NCBI GenBank assembly: GCA_965658225.1
Contig: CBFHRK010000001.1
Span: 2,335 to 66,334 of the forward strand
From: Flavobacteriales bacterium
GTDB lineage: Bacteria; Bacteroidota; Bacteroidia; Flavobacteriales; ECT2AJA-044
Length of the DNA: 64,000 bases
Reading direction: 5' to 3'
A program made the translations under genes and the position numbers. Shown one piece after another: positions 40,380 through 61,231 of this stretch. Within the stretch, counting starts at the first letter, position 1, and every line of letters begins with the position of its first letter. Below the pieces are notes generated by a model. The model had not been told where the DNA came from, ran no database searches, and saw only the letters and a program-made list of their open reading frames with translations.

Positions 40380-41822
40380 ATGAACCCATCTTATGAAGAA
40401 CATGTAGCACTTCGTGCCAAGCACGATAAAGCCGCAGCAGAATTTGTGAAAATTGTTACCGATTTATGGCTCGACAAATCCATTGAAGTAACACTCTTCC
40501 GCAAACCCCTTTTAGACCAGAGCATTAGCGAAATCTTAAACACGCACAATTACGCGCGTCAAATTAAAGGAGAGCCCATTACCATAGAAGAGACTTTGGC
40601 GCTCGTTCGCGTTATTTCGTCTATTGATGTGGCTCCTTCCAGACTCGACATTGGTCGTTTAAGCGCTGAATGGCTAAAAGAGCAAGACGCTTTCGAAACC
40701 ATGGAAGCATTTGTGCACGCCAAACTGGATCACATGATCGACGCTTCTTTCGACCTTGTTCCTAAAGATGTAGTCCTTTACGGGTTTGGACGAATTGGTC
40801 GTTTATTAGCTCGTATCCTTATTTCGAAAGAAGGACGCGGCGAGCAGCTGCGCTTGCGCGCCATTGTAACTCGCGATACTACGGAAGAGCAGTTAGTGAA
40901 AAGAGCTTCTACTCTTCGCCAAGATTCCGTTCACGGGCATTTTCCAGGAACGGTAGAAGTAGATGTTGAGAACTATCGTTTAATCGTTAATGGTAGACCC
41001 ATCCAAATTATTAGTGCCGCTCAACCAGAAGACATCGATTATACCCAGTACGGAATTAACGATGCCTTGGTTATTGACAACACCGGTGCGTTCCGGGATC
41101 ATGAAGCTCTATCGCGCCATTTAGTATCTAAAGGTGCCGAGAAAGTTCTTTTCACGGCTCCGGGTAAAGGTGTACCGAATGTTGTTCACGGTGTAAACCA
41201 AAATGACTTTGATCCGGCAGATACGAATGTTTGGTCAGCGGCTTCATGTACAACGAATGCTATTACGCCCGTCTTGAAAGTAATTCAAGATGAGTACAAT
41301 GTGATAAAAGGGCATATAGAGACGGTACATGCCTATACAAACGACCAAAATTTGGTCGATAACATGCACAAAAAATACCGTCGTGGTCGGGCAGCAGCCT
41401 TGAATATGGTTATAACCGAAACGGGTGCTGGTCAGGCCGTCTCTAAGGCGCTTCCCGTTCTTGAGGGCAAGCTTACCTCGAACGCAATTCGCGTTCCTAC
41501 CCCGAATGGATCATTGGCGATTCTAAGCTTAACCGTTGAAAAGAAAACGAGTAAAGAAGACGTCAATTTAACGATGCGCAAAGCGGCCTTATACAGTGAA
41601 TTAGTAGAGCAAATAGAGTACTCAATGGACGATGAGTTAGTATCGAGCGATATCGTTGGACGCACTGCTCCATCGATTTTCGATAGCCCAGCTACTATTG
41701 TAAGCGGCGATGGTCACAGCATGAACTTGTACGTTTGGTACGACAATGAGTTCGGCTATAGTTGTCAAGTAATGCGTTTAGCAAAATATATTGCGGGCGT
41801 GCGACGCTTGAGATACTATTAA
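40380..41822 (+). CDS. gap: Glyceraldehyde-3-phosphate dehydrogenase, long form with N-terminal extension
   Basis: YGFGRIGR, AASCTTN, ETVHAYT, RVPTPNGS and WYDNEFGY. Confidence 0.96.
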   Translation: MNPSYEEHVALRAKHDKAAAEFVKIVTDLWLDKSIEVTLFRKPLLDQSISEILNTHNYARQIKGEPITIEETLALVRVISSIDVAPSRLDIGRLSAEWLKEQDAFETMEAFVHAKLDHMIDASFDLVPKDVVLYGFGRIGRLLARILISKEGRGEQLRLRAIVTRDTTEEQLVKRASTLRQDSVHGHFPGTVEVDVENYRLIVNGRPIQIISAAQPEDIDYTQYGINDALVIDNTGAFRDHEALSRHLVSKGAEKVLFTAPGKGVPNVVHGVNQNDFDPADTNVWSAASCTTNAITPVLKVIQDEYNVIKGHIETVHAYTNDQNLVDNMHKKYRRGRAAALNMVITETGAGQAVSKALPVLEGKLTSNAIRVPTPNGSLAILSLTVEKKTSKEDVNLTMRKAALYSELVEQIEYSMDDELVSSDIVGRTAPSIFDSPATIVSGDGHSMNLYVWYDNEFGYSCQVMRLAKYIAGVRRLRYY

Positions 41823-41877: not shown

Positions 41878-42049
41878 ACCCTTTCAGACCCTTTCGGAAA
41901 TACGCTACATTTAGTTCAAATTGTCAAAAGCCGCGCAATTATGAAATTCAGTTGCTGATCCTAAAAGAATAAGCGCATTTGCAGTAAGGAAAATAAAGGT
42001 CGCTTCGCTCTTTATCATCCCCCGCCATTCTCGTTCGTTATTGCAGGAA

Positions 42050-42739
42050 CTAAAGCAACGCTCTCAGCTCCTTTAAATGCTGGATCTCATAAGTTACCGG
42101 CTCTTGGTGTAGTACTTTATGCGGATTAAAGAATACTTGATCCCAACCGGCCTGTTTCGCTCCTATAATGTCGGCTTCTAAGTTATCGCCGATCATTAAA
42201 CTGCGTTCTTTTGAGGCCCCTGTTCTGCTCAGCGCATATCGGAAAATATTGTGATGCGGCTTGCGAACGCCCGCCTGCTCTGAGGTTACGATCACATCAA
42301 AATGATCACCCAAGGTGCTTTCCTTGAGCTTGATGTGCTGCACTTCCTCAAATCCATTCGTGATAATATGCAACTCATAGCGTTCCTTCAAGTAAACGAG
42401 CGTTTCAATAGCTTCCGGGAATAGGTTCTTCTTATATGGCGAACGAGCGAGGTATTCTTTTTCCATCCATTTTGCGACCTCACGGTCGGATATCCCAAAT
42501 TCCTCCAACGTGCGCAAAAAACGAGTTATGCGCAGCGTAGCTTTATCAATTTCCCCATTTCGATACTTCTTCCACATTCGATCGTTATGAACGCGGTAGC
42601 GCGGAAAAAACTCATCGAGCCGCAGGCTCCCATGATGAAGCGGAAGCTCCGCCAATAGCTCGCCTAGCGTCTCTTGCGCATTGGCGTCAAAATCCCACAG
42701 CGTATGATCTAAATCGAAAAAAAGATGATCGTACTTCAT
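42050..42739 (-). CDS. yjjG: YjjG-family HAD noncanonical pyrimidine nucleotidase
   Basis: FFDLDHTLWDF, IITNGF, KPH and MIGDNLEADI. Confidence 0.92.
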   Translation of the reverse strand: MKYDHLFFDLDHTLWDFDANAQETLGELLAELPLHHGSLRLDEFFPRYRVHNDRMWKKYRNGEIDKATLRITRFLRTLEEFGISDREVAKWMEKEYLARSPYKKNLFPEAIETLVYLKERYELHIITNGFEEVQHIKLKESTLGDHFDVIVTSEQAGVRKPHHNIFRYALSRTGASKERSLMIGDNLEADIIGAKQAGWDQVFFNPHKVLHQEPVTYEIQHLKELRALL

Positions 42740-44284: not shown

Positions 44285-45592
44285 TTAATCCGAATGCGCC
44301 GCATCCAGCAGTCCTTCGTAATAATGCCTCCACCCCCTCCAAAGTTTATTTTCAGAAACAGATTCGTTATGCCAAACCGAAATAAAAGTGCCTTGAACGT
44401 CTTTTACCGCCTTCAATACAGGAAGTGTTTTTTCAAGCGCTTCGGGTGCATCCATTTTTTGGTAGAACTTTAAAATACCTTCCATGGCCGCAAATGGGTG
44501 GATTTTTAGTGGCGTCATGAATTCTAAATCGAGGTCGTAAAAGTAAAACGGTGTGCAGGTTCCGGCCCTAAACCCGAGCTGAGATGCGTAGCCCATGGTG
44601 TAATCATCCGTAATATCTAAATCCAAAAGGTTTCGGTAGGTTTCCGGAATAGTCAGCTTCAAAAAGTGCTGCCTGCTTCTAGTTATCTCTCGATGCGTTA
44701 TTCCTCCCAATCGCTGCACTTCGTCTGCCAAGCGCTTTTTCTTCTTATTGCTACCATACGACGGGTGGATTCCAATTTGTGCGTAATCGGCAATTCCTTT
44801 AATCAATCGTCGAAATCGAGGGTTTGTGTACGGTACATTCTTATCATTTAGTCCGTAATCGGCTAAAAGGAAAAAGTAAATCGTAGGGACTTTATACTTC
44901 TCTTGGATCGACTTCAAATACGGGAAAGTGTCGTACGGATCGGGCCGCAGGCCCAAAAGAACAGAAATACGCTCGACAATTTCGCGACCGTTCAGCTGGG
45001 TAACCGCCCTAAAGAATCCGCCCATACCCCGCATCAAGCCTTTCCCAGTATAGGAATAGGCATTGTCTACGTCAATTGTATTAATGAAGGAAAAGCTTCG
45101 TTCGGGCCATTTGAATTCGGGGAACGCTTGAGATAAAATCTCTTTAATCTTGAGTGCCCATTCATCGACTACTGGTCGCTGCAAAAAATGTGCTTTATAG
45201 GCAACCGACGACTCAGCAGAAAAACGTTCATGCTTATCCTTGATATGAGGCAAGTACTCTTCATAACGCGACAGCAAGTAAAAAGAAGCTGCAAAGGGAT
45301 CGAAAGGCAAGGCCGATGGCGTAGGCACTGGGAACAATGAAATTACGTCGTCTAATTCGCTGGGTTTTGGATCCCACTCATTGATTCCCGTTTCAAACAG
45401 CAGTGAGCTATTCCTAAAAAACACTTCATTTCCCAAGGGGCGTGGGGCATAGCTCATTTTAGGTCCCTTGTGCTCAATGAATTCAGAAACTTCGGTCGTG
45501 ACTTCTACCGAGACTTTAAGCATTTCGGCAAAAACCTGCTTAAAGGCGTACAATACACGCGGGTTCTTTTTATGTGCATACACCAAAATCAT
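44285..45592 (-). CDS. Polysaccharide deacetylase family protein with N-terminal DUF7033-like domain
   Basis: FDPFAASFYLLSRYEEY, TIDVD, IGIHPSY, RQHFL and VWHNE. ATGA overlap with wecB supports a start at 45592. Confidence 0.85.
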   Translation of the reverse strand: MILVYAHKKNPRVLYAFKQVFAEMLKVSVEVTTEVSEFIEHKGPKMSYAPRPLGNEVFFRNSSLLFETGINEWDPKPSELDDVISLFPVPTPSALPFDPFAASFYLLSRYEEYLPHIKDKHERFSAESSVAYKAHFLQRPVVDEWALKIKEILSQAFPEFKWPERSFSFINTIDVDNAYSYTGKGLMRGMGGFFRAVTQLNGREIVERISVLLGLRPDPYDTFPYLKSIQEKYKVPTIYFFLLADYGLNDKNVPYTNPRFRRLIKGIADYAQIGIHPSYGSNKKKKRLADEVQRLGGITHREITRSRQHFLKLTIPETYRNLLDLDITDDYTMGYASQLGFRAGTCTPFYFYDLDLEFMTPLKIHPFAAMEGILKFYQKMDAPEALEKTLPVLKAVKDVQGTFISVWHNESVSENKLWRGWRHYYEGLLDAAHSD

Positions 45593-46719
45593 CCGAACAC
45601 CTTCCAAATATGTTCGGCAATCAAGTTGGCCGCATCGCCATTCCCAAAGGTCCCTTTAACTGGACCGGTTTTTGGCTCAGCAGCTAAACGTTTCCATGTA
45701 GCTTCAATCAATCCCGAATCGCAATCAACGATGGTTGCGAAGGTATTGTCAACCAATTCGTTCCATTCCGTTTCAGAGCGTAATATTACGCTAGGCGTTC
45801 CAAAAAAGAAGGCTTCCTTGGGTATTCCGCCGCTATCAGTAATGACGAATCGAGCATCGCGAACGAGTGCCAGGGTTTCAAAATAAGTCGTGGGCGATTC
45901 AAAAAGAAACCTTTTGTGTCCGTGAATTTTTGGCCAAAACTCCGGATAATGGGTGTCAATGGCTGTTCGTGTACGAGGATGACAAGGGAAATAAAGCATC
46001 GCTCCCGAGGCTTCCGTATTGTACAGGACGCTATTCAGAATTGTTGTAAGTCGAGCCGGGTCATTGGTATTCTCGGCTCTATGCAACGTAAAGAGCACAA
46101 AGTCATCGGGATCTAATCCAGCCGGGAGGCTGGCTTTATTACTGAAATACAAAGCGTTATCGTACATCACGTCACCCGTAAGCTGAACGCTCGGGTTTAC
46201 AACTGTTGGCTCACCTACGGCTCGATTCGTAATGCCTTCAGCCTTCAACTGTTCCACCGCTGCCTCCACCGGGCAAGCCAGAACACAACTTAAATGATCC
46301 GTTAAATGTCGGTTTACTTCTTCGGGCATACTCCGATTATAGGAGCGCAAGCCGGCTTCTACGTGAACAAGGGGCAATTCTAGGTCGCTCGCGGCCAGGG
46401 CTGCACCCAGCGTAGTATTCGTATCGCCATATACCAAAACCACATCAGGCCGATTTTCTTCCCAAAGCTTGTGAAGCTCCATGGTTATTCTGGCTGTTTG
46501 AACGGCGGGTTTACCGCTTCCTACCCCGAGGTTGTATTTCGGGTTGGGCAATTCTAATTCCCGAAAGAAAACATCGGACATGTTATCGTCGTAATGCTGG
46601 CCCGAGTGAATGAGCGTTTCTTCTATTCGACCCGCATAATCGGCCCGCAATACACGATCTAATGCGGCAGACTTTATAAACTGAGGTCGAGCCCCTACAA
46701 CTGTGTGAAGTTTTATCAT
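45589..46719 (-). CDS. wecB: UDP-N-acetylglucosamine 2-epimerase (non-hydrolysing)
   Basis: GARPQFIK, HSGQHYD, VYGDTNTT, HVEAGLRS and TDSGG. Confidence 0.96.
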   Translation of the reverse strand: MIKLHTVVGARPQFIKSAALDRVLRADYAGRIEETLIHSGQHYDDNMSDVFFRELELPNPKYNLGVGSGKPAVQTARITMELHKLWEENRPDVVLVYGDTNTTLGAALAASDLELPLVHVEAGLRSYNRSMPEEVNRHLTDHLSCVLACPVEAAVEQLKAEGITNRAVGEPTVVNPSVQLTGDVMYDNALYFSNKASLPAGLDPDDFVLFTLHRAENTNDPARLTTILNSVLYNTEASGAMLYFPCHPRTRTAIDTHYPEFWPKIHGHKRFLFESPTTYFETLALVRDARFVITDSGGIPKEAFFFGTPSVILRSETEWNELVDNTFATIVDCDSGLIEATWKRLAAEPKTGPVKGTFGNGDAANLIAEHIWKVFG

Positions 46720-46722
46720 GAA

Positions 46723-47418
46723 CTAAAGTTCGTTATTATCGGCAAAGCTAAAATAATCCTGTTCAGTCACTATTAAGTGATCCAGGACCTTAATATCTAA
46801 TAATTCGCCCGCATTTTTAACTCGCTCAGTAAGTTTTCGATCGGCAGTGCTCGGGGATTTGTTCCCACTCGGATGATTGTGGGCGATGATTATAGACGTA
46901 GCTCCGCAATAAAAGCCCTCCCTAAACAGAAGACGAATATCGACCACCGTACCGCTGATTCCGCCTTTACTAATAGGTCCTTTTTGAAGAATTTTATTGG
47001 CGTTATTCAAATACAGCACCCAGAATTGCTCGTGATTTAAATCGCCCAGCGTAGGTTGAAGGAGTTCGAAAGCCTGGCGGCTCGATTGAATCGTTTGTCG
47101 TTCAAGCGCTTCTGCTCCAGCCCTTCTCCGGCCTAATTCCAAAGCGGCTAGTATCCTAACCGCTTTTGCCTCACCAATTCCATGCATCGCGATTAATCGC
47201 TGGAAATCGAGCTTTCCCAGTTCTTTCAAATTACCTTCTACAGACTTCAACAAAACTCGAGCAAGATCTACCGCGCTTTTATCTCGTGTTCCCGACCCAA
47301 TTAAAATGGCTAAAAGCTCGGCATGACTCATCTGATGCCTGCCCCAATTAATCATTTTTTCACGCGGTCGATCTTCTTTCGCCCAAAAGCGAATTCCCCT
47401 TTCTTTTGAATAATTCAT
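46723..47418 (-). CDS. radC: RadC-family JAB-domain protein
   Basis: DRPREK, HhH GIGEAKA and AHNHPSG...S..D...LDHLI. Confidence 0.96.
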   Translation of the reverse strand: MNYSKERGIRFWAKEDRPREKMINWGRHQMSHAELLAILIGSGTRDKSAVDLARVLLKSVEGNLKELGKLDFQRLIAMHGIGEAKAVRILAALELGRRRAGAEALERQTIQSSRQAFELLQPTLGDLNHEQFWVLYLNNANKILQKGPISKGGISGTVVDIRLLFREGFYCGATSIIIAHNHPSGNKSPSTADRKLTERVKNAGELLDIKVLDHLIVTEQDYFSFADNNEL

Positions 47419-47582
47419 TATTCAAAGTACCACGTTGTCAAGGCCATAGACAAGAACCCATCAGACTCTGAAAGTCGAATCGAGACTTATTCATGTTTTC
47501 GGACCTTCTTTCGAACATTAAATTATCACTCCAGAGCCACTTTGAACCCAATTCAATCATCGAAAACTAGTACCTTCAAGGC

Positions 47583-48911
47583 ATGAACGTATACACCCCT
47601 GCAGACCTTAAAACGGTGTCCGTATTAGAAAGTGTTCCCGACTACGAGCTGCAGTGGCTGATTGATCACGCTACCTTCCAAACGTATAAAGAGGGTGAAT
47701 ACGTCTTTAAAAAAGGAGACGCTGCCGATGAAATGTACATTCTTATGGAAGGGCGTGTGCTTTTCTACTTGGAACAAAATGGTCAACGGCGCGATATGGG
47801 CGAAGCTAAAAAAGGCACCTTAACAGGTCTCCTTCCCTATTCGCGATTAACTCATGCAACCGGTAATGGCGTCGTTATTAAACATGTAGAGTTATTGTCG
47901 GTTCATCGCGATATCATTCAAAAAATGATTGTTGAATGTCCGCTTTTAACTACTGCGCTCGTTCACCACATGACTTCGAGAGTGCGAGATTTCACGAATA
48001 CTCAACAACAAGTAGACAAACTCGCGGCGCTCGGAAAACTTTCTGCCGGACTCGCACACGAGCTTAACAACCCTGCCTCGGCGATCGTGCGCAGCGCTGA
48101 CGTGCTCAAACAACATCTTGGACATGTGCCCGATCGGTTTAAAAAGGTCTTGTCAATGCGAATGGAAGAATCGGCCATTAACGTTGTAAATGGGTTAGCT
48201 GATCAAAAAATTCTCGAAGTGATTAAAGACATCCCAATGCTCGAGCGTTCCGATCTTGAAGACGACTTGCTCGATTGGCTCGAGGACCACGATATTGATT
48301 TTAGTGAAGAATGGGTCGAACAGCTATTAGACTTTAACTTCTCTACTGATGACCTAGAAACCATTTGTAGCGCAACGGGTGCAGAAGCTCTTGGACCATC
48401 ACTAGGTTGGTTGGTCAACGTGCTCACTACAGAGAAATTAGTAGAAGAAATAAAAGATGATTTGAACTCGACCATGTCGCAGTACTTAATCGATCAAATA
48501 AATAGTATTGAGAACATTGAAGTCAGCGGCCAAACAGAGATTTGCAGAGTGGAAGGCTCGGATCGACTCGAAAAGGTGGTGCTTAAAAACCGAACTGATC
48601 AATCCGAGATTGAATTAGAGGCAACGGCACTCTTTATTTTCATCGGCGCGAAACCCTACACGGAGTGGCTGAACGATGACTACTTGCGCGATTCGAAAGA
48701 GTTTTTACTTTCGGGGCGTGATTTAACAAGCCATCCAGAATACAAAAAACGTTGGAAGCTAGAAAGAGACCCTTATATACTTGAAACATCCGTTCCCGGT
48801 GTATTTACGGCCGGAGACGCACGTAGTGGAGCCATGAATAGAGTTGCCTCTGCCGTAGGAGAAGGCGCAATGAGTATTAGTCTCGTTCATCGTTACCTCA
48901 GCGAAAATTAA
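47583..48911 (+). CDS. Chimeric ORF: cNMP-binding domain and HisKA of a sensor kinase fused in frame to the C-terminal third of a thioredoxin-reductase-like protein
   Basis: YVFKKGDAADEMYILMEG (cNMP) and GLAHELNNP (H-box), with no HATPase. Then DDLNSTMSQYLIDQI...FIFIGAKP...TSVPGVFTAGD...RVASAVGEG. Confidence 0.8.
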   Translation: MNVYTPADLKTVSVLESVPDYELQWLIDHATFQTYKEGEYVFKKGDAADEMYILMEGRVLFYLEQNGQRRDMGEAKKGTLTGLLPYSRLTHATGNGVVIKHVELLSVHRDIIQKMIVECPLLTTALVHHMTSRVRDFTNTQQQVDKLAALGKLSAGLAHELNNPASAIVRSADVLKQHLGHVPDRFKKVLSMRMEESAINVVNGLADQKILEVIKDIPMLERSDLEDDLLDWLEDHDIDFSEEWVEQLLDFNFSTDDLETICSATGAEALGPSLGWLVNVLTTEKLVEEIKDDLNSTMSQYLIDQINSIENIEVSGQTEICRVEGSDRLEKVVLKNRTDQSEIELEATALFIFIGAKPYTEWLNDDYLRDSKEFLLSGRDLTSHPEYKKRWKLERDPYILETSVPGVFTAGDARSGAMNRVASAVGEGAMSISLVHRYLSEN

Positions 48912-48915
48912 CCCC

Positions 48916-50073
48916 ATGATAGAGCGTTTTAAACAAATTCGGAAGTATACCGAAGATCTTTGTCTTCCCCTTCAAGTAGAAGATTATATTCCTCAAGCGG
49001 TGGTGGATGTGAGTCCACCTAAATGGCATCTCGCCCATACTACTTGGTTTTTCGAAACGTTCATCTTAAAGCCACACGCTCCTGGTTATCAAGTGTTTCA
49101 AGAGAAATACAGCTTCCTTTTCAACTCCTATTACGAATCTATTGGAGATCGTGTTTTCCGCGATCATCGCGGACATATGAGTCGGCCCACGGTTTCAGAA
49201 GTGTATGATTACCGAGCGTATGTAAACGAGCACATGGTCGAGTTTTTGGAGAATTCCGAGGTTCCAAATTTCCTTAATGAGGTTTTGGCCTTAGGTCTTC
49301 AGCACGAGCAACAACACCAAGAGTTACTCATAACGGACTTAAAGTTCACACTCTCTCGAAACCCCTTGTTTCCAGCGTACGACTTAAATAACACTTGGGA
49401 GACTAATTTTCCTTCGCCGGCGGAAAACCAATGGGTTGAATTGGCTGAAGGGCTCTACGATATAGGCTACTCGGGAAGCGATTTTTGTTTCGACAATGAA
49501 TTGGGTCGGCATAAAGTATATCTCGCAGGTTGTCGTGCCGCCACAAATTACGTGACTAATGAAGAGTATTTGGCCTTCATGAACGATGGTGGATATACTG
49601 ATTTTCGTCATTGGCTCAGTGAAGCGTGGGGAATGGTTCAAGAAAAAGGGTGGAATGCTCCTTTGCACTGGCATCAAATCGATGGTCAGTGGCACGAGTA
49701 TCAATTGAACGGGTTGGTCCCGATCGAGCCGAAGGCTCCGGTGCGCCATATTAGCTACTTTGAGGCCGATGCTTATGCCGCCTGGTCAGGTAAGCGGTTG
49801 CTCACCGAATTCGAGCGTGAAGCGCTTGATAACGCCCTCACGGGCGGATGGCTATGGGAGTGGACGGGAAGTGCGTATCTGCCCTACCCGCGCTTCTCCA
49901 AAGCGGAAGGCGCCATTGGCGAATACAACGGAAAATTCATGGTGAATCAAATGGTACTTCGCGGCGGGTCATTGGCATCGCCTTTGGGTCATGTCAATCG
50001 ACCGACATATAGAAATTTCTTTCATCCGCATCTTAGATGGCAATTTAACGGGATCAGACTCGCGAGTAAATGA
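48916..50073 (+). CDS. egtB: Ergothioneine sulfoxide synthase EgtB
   Basis: SPPKWHLAHTTWFFE, HEQQHQEL iron-binding motif, FGE-sulfatase C-terminal domain and RNFFHP. Confidence 0.93.
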   Translation: MIERFKQIRKYTEDLCLPLQVEDYIPQAVVDVSPPKWHLAHTTWFFETFILKPHAPGYQVFQEKYSFLFNSYYESIGDRVFRDHRGHMSRPTVSEVYDYRAYVNEHMVEFLENSEVPNFLNEVLALGLQHEQQHQELLITDLKFTLSRNPLFPAYDLNNTWETNFPSPAENQWVELAEGLYDIGYSGSDFCFDNELGRHKVYLAGCRAATNYVTNEEYLAFMNDGGYTDFRHWLSEAWGMVQEKGWNAPLHWHQIDGQWHEYQLNGLVPIEPKAPVRHISYFEADAYAAWSGKRLLTEFEREALDNALTGGWLWEWTGSAYLPYPRFSKAEGAIGEYNGKFMVNQMVLRGGSLASPLGHVNRPTYRNFFHPHLRWQFNGIRLASK

Positions 50074-50999
50074 TTATATACACACCCAACAAAGCTTTTG
50101 GTAAAGATATTCTTCATTGGGGACGCAGCTGGACAATGCGGCGCTTAATCTATTTCACCTTAATTATTGGTGCAATAACTGGACTTATTTGCGCTCCTAT
50201 AGTACATCTGGAAGTCACGGAAGAACTAAAAATGAATCCGTCCGTTTTTTCGTTTTTAGGGATTGTGCTAAGTATTTTATTGGTATTTAGAACCAATACG
50301 GCCTATGATCGATGGTGGGAAGGCAGAAAGCAATGGGGCGCACTCGTGAACAACTGTCGCAACCTAGCCATCTTGGTGCAAACCTCCTTTCCCAAAAATG
50401 ATCTAAGCTCCCGTACATTTATGGCCGTGCATATCAGCAACTTCTGTATCGCTTTCAAGGAACATTTGCGCGAGGGAACTAAACTAGAGGAGTTGATTGA
50501 TGTCTCCAGAGAAGAGCTGACGGTTTACGAATCCAAAGACCATGTGCCCAATCACATTGCATTAGAAATTCAACAATGCCTGCATGATGCCTATCGGGCC
50601 GAGGCCATAGGGCCGGAGGACCACCGAAACATGAAAGAACAGTGGCAATCATTGCTCGATATTTTAGGTGCATGCGAGCGTATTAAAAAGACGCCAATTC
50701 CCTTTAGCTACGCGGTTCATATCCGATTATTCATTTTGGCCTACACAGTGCTCCTTCCCTTCGCTTTAGTGGCAAGTTTTGAGTATTGGACGGTACCCTT
50801 AGTCATGTTCATATTTTATGCCTTCATGGGAGTTCAAATGATGGCCGAAGAAATTGAAGATCCTTTTGGGCTCGATTGTAACGACCTCCCAACGGGCACC
50901 ATTGCTCACACAATAAAAAACAACGTTTTCGAAATTTTAGAAAACAAATCGCACCAGGGCCTTCGTCTGGAATTACACGATTACGATAAAATACATTGA
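50070..50999 (+). CDS. Bestrophin-family (YneE/VCCN1-like) anion channel
   Basis: LVFRTNTAYDRWWEGRKQWG, ERIKKTPIPFSY and EIEDPFG.D.NDLP. Confidence 0.95.
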   Translation: MIIYTPNKAFGKDILHWGRSWTMRRLIYFTLIIGAITGLICAPIVHLEVTEELKMNPSVFSFLGIVLSILLVFRTNTAYDRWWEGRKQWGALVNNCRNLAILVQTSFPKNDLSSRTFMAVHISNFCIAFKEHLREGTKLEELIDVSREELTVYESKDHVPNHIALEIQQCLHDAYRAEAIGPEDHRNMKEQWQSLLDILGACERIKKTPIPFSYAVHIRLFILAYTVLLPFALVASFEYWTVPLVMFIFYAFMGVQMMAEEIEDPFGLDCNDLPTGTIAHTIKNNVFEILENKSHQGLRLELHDYDKIH

Positions 51000-51000
51000 C

Positions 51001-51942
51001 ATGCCCACTTTTGCAGAGGATGTCCTGGCCGGACTAAGCAAAGAAGAGAAATCTATCAGTTCAAAATACTTTTACGACGCCAAAGGCAGCGCTATTTTTC
51101 AGGCGATCATGCGTATGCCAACGTACTACCTAACTGATTCAGAATTTGAGATTTTAGAAACGAATAAAGCTGAAATTCTCGAGCTCTTCACGGAAGACCA
51201 AGGTCCATTCAACTTGGTCGAGTTTGGAGCTGGAGATGGATTAAAGACGAAAATACTGATCGAATTCTTTTTAAAAGAAAACGTTGATTTCACCTACGCT
51301 CCTATTGACATTTCACGAGATGCGCTGAACAACTTATCTGATGATTTACGGAGCAAGTGGCCCGATTTAAAAATTAACCCGCTGCACACAGACTATTTCA
51401 ATGGTTTAGATGTATTACAAAAGGAAGAGCGAAGAAATATCGTTCTCTTTTTAGGTTCCAATCTGGGGAATTTCGATCCCAAGGGAGCTCAGGTATTCCT
51501 ATCAGAAATACGCGCGCATCTAAAATCCAAGGATGGTTTATTTATTGGTCTGGACTTACAGAAAGATCCACATGTAATCCTACGGGCATACAATGACCCG
51601 GAAGGCATCACAAAGTCGTTTAACCTTAATTTATTGAATCGCATCAACGAGGAGCTCGGAGGCCATTTTGACCCCATGAAATTTGATTTCTACTGCTCCT
51701 ATTCGCCCGAAACAGGTGAGGTGCGCTCCTATATAGTGAGTAAAACGGACCAAAAAGTTCGGATCGATTCACTAAACTTTGAAGCCCAGTTCAAACAATG
51801 GGAAACGATTCATACCGAAATAAGTAGGAAGTTTAAGCTGGACAGGATGCCGAAGCTCGCGAATGAAAATGGTTTTGAATTCGTCTCGAATACGCTTGAC
51901 TGCAAGCACTATTTCGTAAACTCCTATTGGAGGGTAAAATGA
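51001..51942 (+). CDS. egtD: L-histidine N-alpha-methyltransferase EgtD
   Basis: SSKYFYDAKGS, PTYYLT, LVEFGAGDG.KT, FLGSNLGNF and IHTEISRKF. Confidence 0.95.
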   Translation: MPTFAEDVLAGLSKEEKSISSKYFYDAKGSAIFQAIMRMPTYYLTDSEFEILETNKAEILELFTEDQGPFNLVEFGAGDGLKTKILIEFFLKENVDFTYAPIDISRDALNNLSDDLRSKWPDLKINPLHTDYFNGLDVLQKEERRNIVLFLGSNLGNFDPKGAQVFLSEIRAHLKSKDGLFIGLDLQKDPHVILRAYNDPEGITKSFNLNLLNRINEELGGHFDPMKFDFYCSYSPETGEVRSYIVSKTDQKVRIDSLNFEAQFKQWETIHTEISRKFKLDRMPKLANENGFEFVSNTLDCKHYFVNSYWRVK

Positions 51943-51943
51943 A

Positions 51944-51968
51944 AAAGGTCGCTCAATGAGCGACCTTT
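51944..51968. terminator. Bidirectional terminator between convergent egtD and rpsT
   Basis: AAAGGTCGCTC-AAT-GAGCGACCTTT perfect inverted repeat. Confidence 0.85.
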
Positions 51969-51993: not shown

Positions 51994-52245
51994 TCAGGCG
52001 CTAGCGATCTGATTCATCATACCACTCTTTAGGTTTGCCGCCTTTTTCTTGTGGATAACATTGGTTTTAGCCAAGCGGTCGATCATACTCGCCACTTGCG
52101 GGTAACGCTCTTCCATTTGTTTTTTGTCGGTCATACCACGAAATTCACGCAATGCATTACGCATTGTTTTGTGGTAATAACGATTGCGCAAGCGACGAAC
52201 TTCAGTGCTGCGGATTCTCTTTAATGCTGACTTATGATTAGCCAT
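51994..52245 (-). CDS. rpsT: 30S ribosomal protein S20
   Basis: [12 protein letters not shown]...[20 protein letters not shown]. Confidence 0.99.
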
Positions 52246-52266
52246 AATACTTCTTCTTATTCTTTG

Positions 52267-52338
52267 TAGCCCGTAGGGGATTCGAACCCCTGCTACCAGG
52301 ATGAAAACCTGGCGTCCTAACCCCTAGACGAACGGGCC
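52267..52338 (-). tRNA. tRNA-Glu (TTC)
   Basis: GGCCCGTTCGTCTAGGGGTTAGGACGCCAGGTTTTCATCCTGGTAGCAGGGGTTCGAATCCCCTACGGGCTA, with TTC anticodon loop and GTTCGAATC T-loop. CCA is not encoded. Confidence 0.97.
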
Positions 52339-52365
52339 GCGTTGCCTCTATTATTTTAGGGAGTG

Positions 52366-58252: not shown

Positions 58253-59044
58253 TCAGAAACTAGATCCAGCAAAAAGTTTTGCCATTTTCTCTTCTTCTTC
58301 TCCAGCAAGCTCCGGATCTACTAAAATACGTCCACAGTGCTCACTCGTCATGATTTTCTTGCGTTGTGCAATTTCCATTTGCTGCTGTGGTGGAATGGTA
58401 AAGAAGGAACCACCCGTAGCGCCGCGCTCAACAGTAACTACGGCAAGTCCATTTTTCGAGTTTCCGCGGATTCTATTGTAAGCGCCTAATAAGCGTTCTT
58501 CGATTTGCTTCTCGAACTCCGTCGCCTTTTTAAGCAACGCCTTCTCTTCTTTTTCCGTTTCTTTCAAAATTGTATCCAACTCAGCTTTCTTGTGCTCAAG
58601 GTGCTTGCTGCGCTCTTCCAGTTTTGATTTAGAAACATCCAACACTTCGTTTTTCGCTTCAATCTTCGCTTTGAATTCTTTGATTCGCTTTTCAGCAAGC
58701 TCGATTTCAAGCGTTTGGAATTCAATTTCTTTGGTCAGGGCATCAAATTCACGGTTGTTACGAACCTTCATTTGCTGTCCTTCGTATTTCTTGATTAGCT
58801 CTTGAGCATCGGCAATCAGGTTTTTCTTTGCTGTAATTTCAGCATCGAGTTCGCCAATTTCTCCTTCGAACTTCTCAATTCGCTTCGTTAATCCAGAGAT
58901 TTCATCTTCAAGATCTTCAACCTCTAATGGTAATTCACCTCGTACTGAGCGAATCTTATCGATTCTTGAATGCACTAATTGAAGGTCAAATAACGCGCGG
59001 AGCTTCTCCTCCACTGAAATTTCTTTCTTTGTTGACTTCGCCAT
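58253..59044 (-). CDS. Coiled-coil/C4 zinc-ribbon (DUF164-like) protein
   Basis: Long coiled coil, VRNNREFDAL and C-terminal degenerate ribbon GGSFFTIP...EHCGRIL. Operonic with Nif3. Confidence 0.9.
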   Translation of the reverse strand: MAKSTKKEISVEEKLRALFDLQLVHSRIDKIRSVRGELPLEVEDLEDEISGLTKRIEKFEGEIGELDAEITAKKNLIADAQELIKKYEGQQMKVRNNREFDALTKEIEFQTLEIELAEKRIKEFKAKIEAKNEVLDVSKSKLEERSKHLEHKKAELDTILKETEKEEKALLKKATEFEKQIEERLLGAYNRIRGNSKNGLAVVTVERGATGGSFFTIPPQQQMEIAQRKKIMTSEHCGRILVDPELAGEEEEKMAKLFAGSSF

Positions 59045-59048
59045 AAGT

Positions 59049-60152
59049 CTATAAATAGTTGATGGGATTTGTATTCACTTCCGACAAAAGGACTGCAAAT
59101 TTAGCAAATTTTTGCATAAGCAACTCTTTTATAAGCACTTTAGTAAACTGCTCACTTTCATAATGGCCTATGTCAGCAATCATTAGATCGTCTTCAGCAT
59201 CAAAGAATTGATGGTATTTGTAATCTCCGGTTATGAAAACATCTGCCTTAGCGCCTTTTGCCGCTGGTAAAAGGAAGCTCCCCGCTCCCCCGCAAATGGC
59301 AATGCGCTGCACTTTTTCTTTTGTCGGACGTGTGTGACGAATCAAGGGGGTTTTCATTTTATCTTTTAGGTCACGTAAAAACGCTATTGCATCTGTCGGG
59401 TTTTCTAAATCACCTATCATACCTGCACCCACTTCTCTAAGTGCGTTTCTCAGTGGATAAAGGTCGTAGGCTACTTCTTCGTACGGGTGACTATTTACCA
59501 AAGCCTGTACTACCTTTCCTTCGTGCCTTCTCGGCACGATTAACTCGAGCCGCGTTTCCTCTTCTTTATGAAGCTTCCCTTTCTCGCCCACAAATGGCTG
59601 GGTGTCTTCACCTGCTTTAAAGGTTCCTTCCCCTTTTGTACTGAAGCTACAGTCGGAATAGTCGCCGATTGAGCCAGCCCCCACTTCAAACAAGGATAAG
59701 CGTACAGCTTCAAGATGGGCATTGGGCACAAAAGTTACCAGTTTACTAAGCAATTCTTTCTTAGGGGCAAGAATTTCAACATTTTGTAATCCTAAACGCC
59801 GCGCAATTTCCGCATTCACTCCAGGCAACACATTGTCCAAGTTTGTGTGAATGGCATAAATCCCGATATCGTTTTTAATAGCCAACATCACCGTTCTTTG
59901 TACATAGTCGGTACCGTTAAACTTTTTGAGTCCTTCAAACACAATGGGGTGATGCGCAATAATGAGCTCACATTTCTTGTTAATGGCCTCTTGAACCACC
60001 TCTTCTGTACAGTCCAAGGAAACCAAAACCTTGCTTACTTCTGCGTCTTTTTGGCCCACAATAAGCCCGCTGTTATCGTAACCCTCTTGATATTCGAGTG
60101 GCGCTATCGACTCTAAATACGATGTTATTTCACCTATTCGCATTACTTTCAA
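59049..60152 (-). CDS. Nif3-like dinuclear metal centre protein (DUF34)
   Basis: YDNSGLIVG, IIAHHP, YAIHTNLD, HPYEEVAYD and IGHYESE. Start may be 60143. Confidence 0.96.
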   Translation of the reverse strand: MKVMRIGEITSYLESIAPLEYQEGYDNSGLIVGQKDAEVSKVLVSLDCTEEVVQEAINKKCELIIAHHPIVFEGLKKFNGTDYVQRTVMLAIKNDIGIYAIHTNLDNVLPGVNAEIARRLGLQNVEILAPKKELLSKLVTFVPNAHLEAVRLSLFEVGAGSIGDYSDCSFSTKGEGTFKAGEDTQPFVGEKGKLHKEEETRLELIVPRRHEGKVVQALVNSHPYEEVAYDLYPLRNALREVGAGMIGDLENPTDAIAFLRDLKDKMKTPLIRHTRPTKEKVQRIAICGGAGSFLLPAAKGAKADVFITGDYKYHQFFDAEDDLMIADIGHYESEQFTKVLIKELLMQKFAKFAVLLSEVNTNPINYL

Positions 60153-60187
60153 TTTGCCTCTAAAGTATAAATCTTACGTTTGTATCC

Positions 60188-61231
60188 ATGCTTAAAAGCC
60201 TTTCAAAGATTTATGGTTTTTTCGTTCGTAAACGGAATCGCGAATTCGATTCGGGAAAGCGACCCGGCGTTGCTTTTGAGTTACCCATCATATCGGTGGG
60301 TAATTTGAATACGGGCGGAACAGGTAAAACGCCGCATGTAGAATACCTTATTGAGCTTCTGAGTCCTCATTTTTCAGTGGCCATTTTAAGCAGAGGATAC
60401 CGTCGAAAAACAAAAGGTTTTCGATTGGGAAGTAACATCGATTCCGCAGATACTCTAGGCGACGAACCCTTCCAATACCTTCGAAAATTCGGTACAAATT
60501 CAACCGTAAAAGAGACGACTGGAAAGCATGTTTCTGTGGCCGTTTCTGAAAGTCGGGTAATTGGTGTTTCTGAATTAATTGCTCGGTGTAATCCGGAAGT
60601 CATTTTACTGGACGATGCTTTTCAACACCGAAAAATAAAACCCGGCTTCCAAATAGTACTGACCACCTTTCAAGAGCCCTACACGCGCGACTCCCTGATT
60701 CCTGCGGGTCGCCTGCGAGAGTCAATTGACGGAGCAGACCGAGCCGATGCGGTGGTGGTTACAAAATGCCCGACGGAATCAACTGATGAAGAACTAATCG
60801 AACTCGGAATGGAGTTACAGTTAAAAGACCATCAAGAGCTGTTCTTCAGTTCTTTTCAATACGGCTCCATCCGCCCGGAGGGCGAAATAATTATCGAATC
60901 TCCCAAACGCGCCTATGCACTTTGTGGAATAGCCAAGCCCGATCCGTTTCTGCAAGAAATCAAGAAACACTTTGAGTTAAAAGGAATTCAAATACATCGC
61001 GATCACCATCGGTTTACGAAAAAAGATATTCAGCGCCTACGGCGCGATGCTACCCCTTTCCTAAACGGAGAAACCATAATTTTAACAACTGAAAAAGATT
61101 TCATGCGTCTACTTCCACTAAAAGATTTATGGCGCGATTTACCCATTTACACTTGGCCCATCAAGCCAGTATTAAAAGCTCACGAGCAATTTGACTCAAT
61201 GATACTCGACTATGTTAGAAAAAGTAAATAA
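60188..61231 (+). CDS. lpxK: Tetraacyldisaccharide 4'-kinase
   Basis: SVGNLNTGGTGKTP, LSRGY, DDAFQH, PAGRLRE and TTEKD. Confidence 0.97.
   Translation: MLKSLSKIYGFFVRKRNREFDSGKRPGVAFELPIISVGNLNTGGTGKTPHVEYLIELLSPHFSVAILSRGYRRKTKGFRLGSNIDSADTLGDEPFQYLRKFGTNSTVKETTGKHVSVAVSESRVIGVSELIARCNPEVILLDDAFQHRKIKPGFQIVLTTFQEPYTRDSLIPAGRLRESIDGADRADAVVVTKCPTESTDEELIELGMELQLKDHQELFFSSFQYGSIRPEGEIIIESPKRAYALCGIAKPDPFLQEIKKHFELKGIQIHRDHHRFTKKDIQRLRRDATPFLNGETIILTTEKDFMRLLPLKDLWRDLPIYTWPIKPVLKAHEQFDSMILDYVRKSK

Follow-up and report, generated by a model that had tools for sequence, protein, structure and literature searches.

The chimeric reading frame and its operon

The stretch analysed here (the window) comprises 64,000 nucleotides (nt) of a Flavobacteriales genome (GCA_965658225.1, contig CBFHRK010000001.1, positions 2,335 to 66,334 of the forward strand). 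At 47583..48911 on the plus strand it contains a chimeric open reading frame (ORF) of 442 amino acids (aa) without interruption, in which the head of a cyclic nucleotide (cNMP)-binding histidine kinase is joined to the tail of a response regulator that combines a receiver domain (REC) with a thioredoxin reductase (TrxR)-like flavoprotein. An earlier note, made from the sequence alone, had described an in-frame chimera of a cNMP-kinase half and a TrxR tail, and this was borne out by domain searches and by the separate relatives of the two halves. Codons 1-292 form the head and codons 293-442 the tail, with the switch from ...LVEEIKD to DLNSTMSQYLIDQI. The junction-spanning peptide reads LVEEIKDDLNSTMSQYLIDQINSIENIEVSGQTEICR.

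For the head, a cNMP-binding (CAP-fold) domain was assigned to aa 33-116 (47679..47930, plus strand) by Pfam PF00027 with 45.4 bits at a cutoff of 27.5, and cNMP-binding domains from the PDB matched aa 9-76. The canonical phosphate-binding cassette is G-E-L-A ... R-[ST]-A. In the chimera the cassette reads, by eye, GTLTGLLPYSRLTHA, with no Glu and with an Arg that is not followed by [ST]-A. Helix 1 of the dimerisation and histidine phosphotransfer (DHp) domain, carrying the H-box LSAGLAHELNNP with the phospho-acceptor His159, lies at 48030..48152 (plus strand). It was placed by a weak Pfam HisKA match (aa 150-190, 16.7 bits, under the cutoff of 26.9) and by motif alignment; the H-box is intact and aligns with those of intact kinase orthologues. 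The GLLPYSR motif, which is specific to the kinase family, is intact as well. For HATPase_c, no Pfam match was obtained in the chimera; the orthologues P0004-P0007 have this domain (PF02518).

The tail (48459..48908, plus strand) equals residues 405-554 of a 554-aa REC-TrxR-like protein and contains the latter half of the NADPH domain and, from the FAD domain, the C-terminal segment that carries the GD motif. Pfam Pyr_redox_2 covered chimera aa 289-428 with profile positions 176-291 of 291 only, and TIGR01292 (TrxR) covered aa 298-439 with positions 178-300 of 300, at 67.7 bits and a cutoff of 343.45. TrxR chains in the PDB were aligned to the chimera only from about residue 184 on. Both Rossmann nucleotide-binding motifs are missing, namely the N-terminal FAD-binding GxGxxG and the NADPH-binding GGGNSA / HRRD, and the junction stands directly after RRD. 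The redox-active CxxC is absent too. The C-terminal GD motif and the terminal FAD-domain helix are kept (TSVPGVFTAGDARSGAMNRVASAVGEGAM); GD is followed by A in the chimera and by V in all intact orthologues.

Downstream, the chimera stop (48909-48911) is followed after a 4-nt gap, as the earlier note had stated, by the ATG at 48916 of egtB (ergothioneine sulfoxide synthase; 48916..50073, plus strand; TIGR03440, 497.6 bits). The next gene encodes a bacterial bestrophin-family channel (50070..50999, plus strand; PF25539, 250.8 bits) and overlaps the egtB stop. egtD (histidine N-alpha-methyltransferase; 51001..51942, plus strand; TIGR03438, 293.7 bits) is the last gene, and a bidirectional hairpin terminator with an 11-bp stem (51944..51968, assigned to neither strand) closes the operon between egtD and rpsT. 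Upstream, a radC-like gene (46723-47418, minus strand) is divergent from the chimera. The operon's promoter and its translation start presumably lie in the intergenic region (47419..47582, plus strand). A promoter was not identified there, a sigma-70 scan being uninformative (7 matches, 8.0 expected), and the region is poorly conserved when compared with G005, the species-representative genome of a sister species.

Parent genes and the deletion

The closest full-length relatives of the head are cNMP-domain histidine kinases of 460-470 aa; with the 465-aa kinase of the related locus L002 it shares 70% identity. The tail is closest to a REC-TrxR-like regulator of 554 aa, with 80-81% identity to residues 402-554 of that protein. 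At L002 and L003 the gene order is radC, 465-aa kinase, 554-aa REC-TrxR (4-nt overlap), egtB, bestrophin, egtD and rpsT. The window has the same flanking genes and one 442-aa ORF in place of the two. By synteny and sequence, the chimera is orthologous to both genes of this cNMP-kinase/REC-TrxR two-component module, with radC upstream and egtB-bestrophin-egtD downstream in the window, at L002 and L003 and on the sister-species scaffold L038. In all four, the bestrophin gene stands between egtB and egtD.

By base-level mapping, the deletion amounts to 1,730 nt relative to both L002 and L003 and extends between two GATG tetranucleotides. The junction with its GATG microhomology (4 nt) lies at 48456..48459 (plus strand), within GATGAT at 48456-48461, which agrees with the position of about 48455 read earlier. 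The kinase side runs ...GAAATTAAAGATG/CTTCGA... (AAAGATG/CTTCG) and the side of the REC-TrxR-like gene ...CGTGATG/ATTTAAGCTCGACC... (CGTGATG/ATTTA). In the chimera the junction reads AAAGATGATTTGA, or over a longer stretch ...GAAATAAAAGATGATTTGAACTCGACC... Kinase codons 293-465 and regulator codons 1-404 were removed. The join is in frame because the parent genes overlap out of phase and 1,730 nt equals 2 modulo 3. The comparison supports the origin of the chimera from a deletion that fused the cNMP-kinase gene in frame to the adjacent regulator gene. The earlier note had proposed such a fusion of neighbours, and the intact pair between radC and egtB at L002 and L003 agrees with it, as does the base-level junction; its "multi-kb" deletion size has to be corrected to the measured 1,730 nt. 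Both signalling genes were in this manner inactivated, and their ends fused, by a microhomology-mediated deletion.

Where the module has two complete genes, the chimera is a single polypeptide that lacks the ATP-binding domain of the kinase, the receiver, the linker and the parts that bind FAD and NADPH; of the flavoprotein, about 75% is gone. The loss of catalytic motifs described in the earlier note holds for the ATPase domain, the receiver and the FAD/NADPH motifs. It does not hold for the redox CxxC, which the intact parent type already lacks: in P0095, GAATTEA stands at the place of CATC in TrxR, and there is no CxxC anywhere. As the parental flavoprotein has no CxxC, the module was not a thioredoxin reductase in the first place.

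In NCBI, the REC-TrxR-like regulator (P0162) is named 'fused response regulator/thioredoxin-disulfide reductase'. A census of response regulators (PMC5847659) includes the REC+TrxR combination. A search of the literature returned no study on the chimera or on a link of the module to ergothioneine.

The genome of the window (2.5 Mb, 235 contigs, estimated 100% complete) contains no other kinase of the family, no other REC-TrxR and no second copy of the module. Its only TrxR relative is the housekeeping TrxB, with 31% identity. The phospho-acceptor DHp segment of the chimera would be left without donor or cognate receiver because a family kinase and a REC-TrxR are both lacking in this genome. 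The product would be unable to autophosphorylate, would find no cognate receiver and would bind neither FAD nor NADPH. A cNMP-type domain upstream of TrxR-like sequence in one polypeptide also occurs in natural full-length cNMP-TrxR-like fusions, which carry the NCBI name 'cyclic nucleotide-binding domain-containing thioredoxin-disulfide reductase'. These fusions carry the complete flavoenzyme, whereas the chimera has only its last 150 residues and a DHp segment between the two parts.

The shared junction, the recombination patch and polymorphism

A Logan contig of 7,967 nt (run ERR4674074) reproduces window 44583-51029 with 3 mismatches, all of them in the bestrophin gene. The identical junction was found in the sister species in four independent assemblies, namely L001 (ERR4674678), the genome G005, the 153-kb ENA marine contig L027 and the ENA scaffold L038. 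With a degenerate junction pattern (TTEKLVEEIKDDL, back-translated), one marine metagenome contig was matched; the same pattern gave no match among genome contigs, a set that probably contains no near relatives. The earlier note had expected a junction found in this genome only to indicate a recent pseudogenising deletion. The junction is not unique, yet it still has the look of such a deletion.

Misassembly, named as an alternative in the earlier note, was discarded on account of the independent assemblies. In this case the contig path would have borrowed the deletion segment from the co-occurring sister species, with the true locus intact. The two species do come from runs with neighbouring accession numbers (ERR4674074 and ERR4674678), and the near-identical patch described below differs from the sister-species strains no more than those strains differ among themselves. 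Such an artefact is extremely improbable in view of the ERR4674074 contig, which has no mismatch in the chimera, and of the genome, in which no contig carries the supposedly bypassed 1.7 kb. Moreover, on the right side of the junction the window has a stretch of only 10-26 nt in common with the sister species, which is probably too short for a graph switch. The k-mer sizes of such assemblers exceed what a shared sequence of this length would permit.

Between the window and the sister species, the flanking genes have a synonymous divergence (dS) of 1.3-1.9, 20 kb of collinear DNA is 81-83% identical, and the background DNA difference of the two chimera-bearing species is approximately 18-20%. 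Along the chimera, the window was compared site by site with L001. The difference is about 37% in nt 1-474, falls to 3 of 409 positions in nt 475-883 (99.3% identity) and is back to about 20% from nt 884 on. The near-identical patch (48057..48465, plus strand) begins with the His159 codon, where the kinase DNA is most conserved, and extends 7 nt beyond the junction; this distance becomes 23 nt if the A at nt 884, which is private to the window, arose by a later mutation. By rough arithmetic, a patch edge would fall within about 15 nt of the junction by accident with a chance of approximately 1-2%. Two private nonsynonymous changes of the window, G213V and S295N, lie in or next to the patch.

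In the simplest reading, the patch would be the vehicle by which the deletion allele passed between the species, or to both from a third. The allele would have moved recently between two co-occurring species by short-patch homologous recombination, with crossovers probably in two conserved stretches, the H-box and the one coding for DDLSSTMSQ. Spread of alleles between species in short patches likewise involves a short near-identical tract carrying the allele; the difference is that the exchanged allele here is a deletion junction and stands at the very edge of the tract. Homology-facilitated illegitimate recombination that made the deletion de novo was rejected, as it leaves the junction in both species unexplained.

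The segment upstream of the patch, which encodes the cNMP domain, is 37% different between window 47583-48056 and L001 3399-3872, and the window is nearer (29%) to the more distant intact L002. With these discordant distances, the gene is therefore a mosaic of three parts with discordant histories. Five further tracts of the window are at least 95% identical to G005 on a background of 81-83% (40408-41408, 42008-42208, 52144-52344, 58543-59143 and 60044-60304), some of them in a GAPDH-like gene and near rpsT. They suggest either that the two species often recombine over short patches or that conservation is very strong in these tracts. An antisense ORF of 90 aa (window 48203-48475, minus strand) overlaps the patch and the junction and has no sign of being a gene.

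For the tail, the ratio of nonsynonymous to synonymous substitution rates (dN/dS) between the two chimera-bearing species is 0.029 (dS 1.85); that of the intact pair L002/L003 is 0.044. Use of the tail value as proof of selection was dropped once the per-site comparison had shown the patch at the junction. If the allele was exchanged recently, the low value is uninformative on the chimera, because the tails then diverged mostly inside intact genes.

Polymorphism was counted among the four sister-species assemblies (L001, G005, L027 and L038), which are approximately 0.1-0.8% apart. Of the segregating sites in the chimera, 13 are nonsynonymous and 4 synonymous, as compared with 29 and 46 in nine flanking genes (Fisher p = 0.0065, odds ratio 5.2). 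With the singletons of the low-coverage contig removed, the ratio was still 7:1 by our own count. In L038, a GGA to TGA change turns Gly325 into a stop and cuts off most of the tail; in G005, N162K lies inside the H-box; H181Y is common to two of the assemblies. In the window, the tail has 3 private changes at sites that are invariant in six intact orthologues (e.g. KGF to KEF and GDV to GDA), and close intact lineages have 0-3. The polymorphism pattern looks like neutral drift. Since the exchange, the DHp and tail segments would have been drifting without effective purifying selection. Among the flanking genes of the sister species, the bestrophin gene (L038 10630-11559) has a rather high ratio of nonsynonymous to synonymous sites (10:6).

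The ORF is best read as a recent fusion pseudogene, a signalling-dead and drifting remnant of a two-gene module, with a probability of about 0.7. The polymorphism, the nonsense allele and the lack of partners suggest that the product is without signalling function and decaying. Among the alternatives listed in the earlier note, the fresh deletion is thus the favoured one, being common to two species through a recent recombination patch and showing neutral-looking polymorphism with a stop codon. The kinase-less phosphotransfer proteins Spo0B and ChpT likewise have a conserved His in a DHp four-helix-bundle segment and lack a functional ATPase domain. These are conserved and act in phosphorelays with identifiable partners, whereas the chimera has no family receiver in its genome and a nonsynonymous polymorphism in its H-box.

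The same observations disfavour a retained new regulator, though less so for the cNMP domain. The whole chimera would in that case be an old, selected fusion that acts as a phosphotransfer or phosphatase protein or regulates the egt operon. This would be in keeping with a junction common to two species with flanking dS of 1.3-1.9, with a tail dN/dS as low as that of the intact orthologues and with the position of the ORF at the head of the egt operon. It is nevertheless very unlikely, given that the 99.3% patch abutting the junction points to a recent exchange, by which a low dN/dS could be inherited from intact genes. In addition, the polymorphism is neutral-like and includes the premature stop and the H-box change, the genome has no receiver partner or paralogous kinase, and the tail consists of two incomplete half-domains of a Rossmann-type flavoenzyme.

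Erosion of the locus in relatives

For a survey at the DNA level, 401 genomes of the order were covered. A full-length orthologue is present in 19 of them, and all three partial copies are in the genus of the window. In this genus, G002 and G003 have the intact pair, and G004 has a different fusion of 208 aa, composed of cNMP residues 1-124 and the last 85 tail residues and directly abutting egtB. Another 182 nt, between two GGAGTGGCC copies, are missing from an abundant relative of G004, whose exact protein was found on at least 24 contigs. The remnant is out of frame there and extends into the start of egtB, with egtB and egtD both intact. In a close relative of L002, a deletion of 5,286 nt with imperfect 10-nt microhomology reaches from about kinase codon 205 into the end of egtD, by which a 266-aa fusion was left between radC and rpsT. 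In G001, no match to the kinase, to the REC-TrxR-like gene (housekeeping TrxB only) or to egtB was obtained. In G004 and its abundant relative (L045 3181-5324; L051 3446-5589), the bestrophin gene is missing and egtD directly follows egtB, and a peptidase S41 gene is located between radC and the remnant.

This series indicates that the genus probably keeps losing a module of a soluble cNMP-domain histidine kinase and a Cys-less flavoprotein REC-TrxR-like regulator. It resembles the fusion pseudogenes left by microhomology deletions in reductive genome evolution, both in the microhomologies at three independent junctions (4 nt, 9 nt and imperfect, about 10 nt) and in the small genomes (2.3-2.8 Mb). 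Operon structure and the erosion series suggest that selection still protects the 5' end driving egtB-bestrophin-egtD. The persistence of the remnant at the operon head would be due to its recent origin and to the promoter and start region of these genes, which it has kept, and deletions confined to the two regulatory genes would be those that spare ergothioneine synthesis. It was also considered whether the in-frame state is required for translational coupling to egtB. This was rejected, as the nonsense allele and the abundant out-of-frame remnant coexist with intact egtB and egtD.

Outside the genus, sporadic chimeras (P0062/63, P0015, P0090 and P0200) were found, each with another junction. 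The regulator C-terminus is kept in all chimeras because a deletion with both ends inside the two-gene block always spares it. The predominance of in-frame chimeras is largely an effect of ascertainment by protein searches. A length-restricted search for a conserved family of short cNMP+tail proteins gave only sporadic chimeras with different junctions among many fragments of ordinary genes, and such a family was rejected.

Several points weigh against the reading as a drifting pseudogene. Together with G004, the chimeras outside the genus make at least five other independent in-frame cases with the same kind of tail, a count that is biased, since in-frame products are the ones that a search by protein similarity tends to detect. 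Five of the 6 assemblies have the ORF without interruption, and some of the polymorphisms, being from metagenome assemblies of low coverage, could be errors. If the deletion predates the species split, the tail dN/dS of 0.029 would mean strong protein-level selection on the fragment. Finally, none of the 17 polymorphic sites lies in the cNMP domain (codons 1-137) and all are in codons 138-442, for which the probability under uniformity is approximately 0.002 by our own arithmetic. Recurrence of in-frame chimeras with the same tail would also suit a retained regulator; frame-broken versions that persist in relatives with intact egtB and egtD speak against it.

The cNMP domain may accordingly still be constrained; a recent sweep of the divergent import in the sister species is a possible alternative explanation of the invariant segment. 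In a partly functional remnant, the cNMP domain, perhaps dimerised by DHp, would be selected as a stand-alone ligand-binding protein, with the rest of DHp and the tail as passengers. Apart from the invariant segment, the intact GLLPYSR motif and H-box of the window fit this, as do several independent remnants with a complete cNMP domain (G004, P0090, P0015 and P0062). Other remnants keep only part of the domain (50 aa in P0200, 96 aa in P0122). The sample consists of four sequences, and the sister-species cNMP segment is a divergent import (37% nt distance) whose low diversity may reflect a recent local sweep. An output of such a protein is not known and the genome contains no partner for it; a partly functional remnant is rather unlikely. 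Quite unlikely, too, is the view that loss of the module is adaptive in streamlined marine bacteria, the deletion allele having crossed the species boundary as a gene-specific sweep and the cNMP-DHp part, first in the ergothioneine operon, being selected as a ligand-binding protein without kinase function.

If the pseudogene reading holds, the chimera should be annotated as a fusion pseudogene and not as 'cyclic nucleotide-binding protein' or 'thioredoxin reductase', and as a gene it would matter little. It would also follow that very low dN/dS in an ORF that is uninterrupted in two species is compatible with a recent pseudogene, provided that recombination has exchanged the allele. At this locus, stepwise erosion by microhomology deletions can be followed base by base; the promoter-proximal start was always spared, and so were the egt genes where they are retained. 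In this genus the ergothioneine operon is headed by the uncharacterised cNMP-kinase/REC-TrxR-like module, yet the module is dispensable for keeping egtB and egtD, which constrains ideas on its functional link to ergothioneine.

Very many TrxR-like C-terminal fragments of exactly 145 or 167 aa were found in metagenomes (P0123-P0238), mostly on contigs of about 1 kb. These lengths probably reflect internal start codons chosen on truncated genes. A few fragments on long contigs, among them P0221 (167 aa, 227 kb) and P0147 (181 aa, 175 kb), could be further remnants. P0141 (203 aa, from a high-GC organism) has the reverse order, with the TrxR-like C-terminus leading straight into the start of a cNMP domain, and could be a different natural arrangement or a read-through. 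At L047 5001-5375, a 124-aa remnant (50 aa of the cNMP domain and a 74-aa TrxR tail) recurs without change on 9 contigs, which stem from several studies. It is located between lpxB and an inorganic pyrophosphatase gene, which is followed by a gene of the FGE-sulfatase family.

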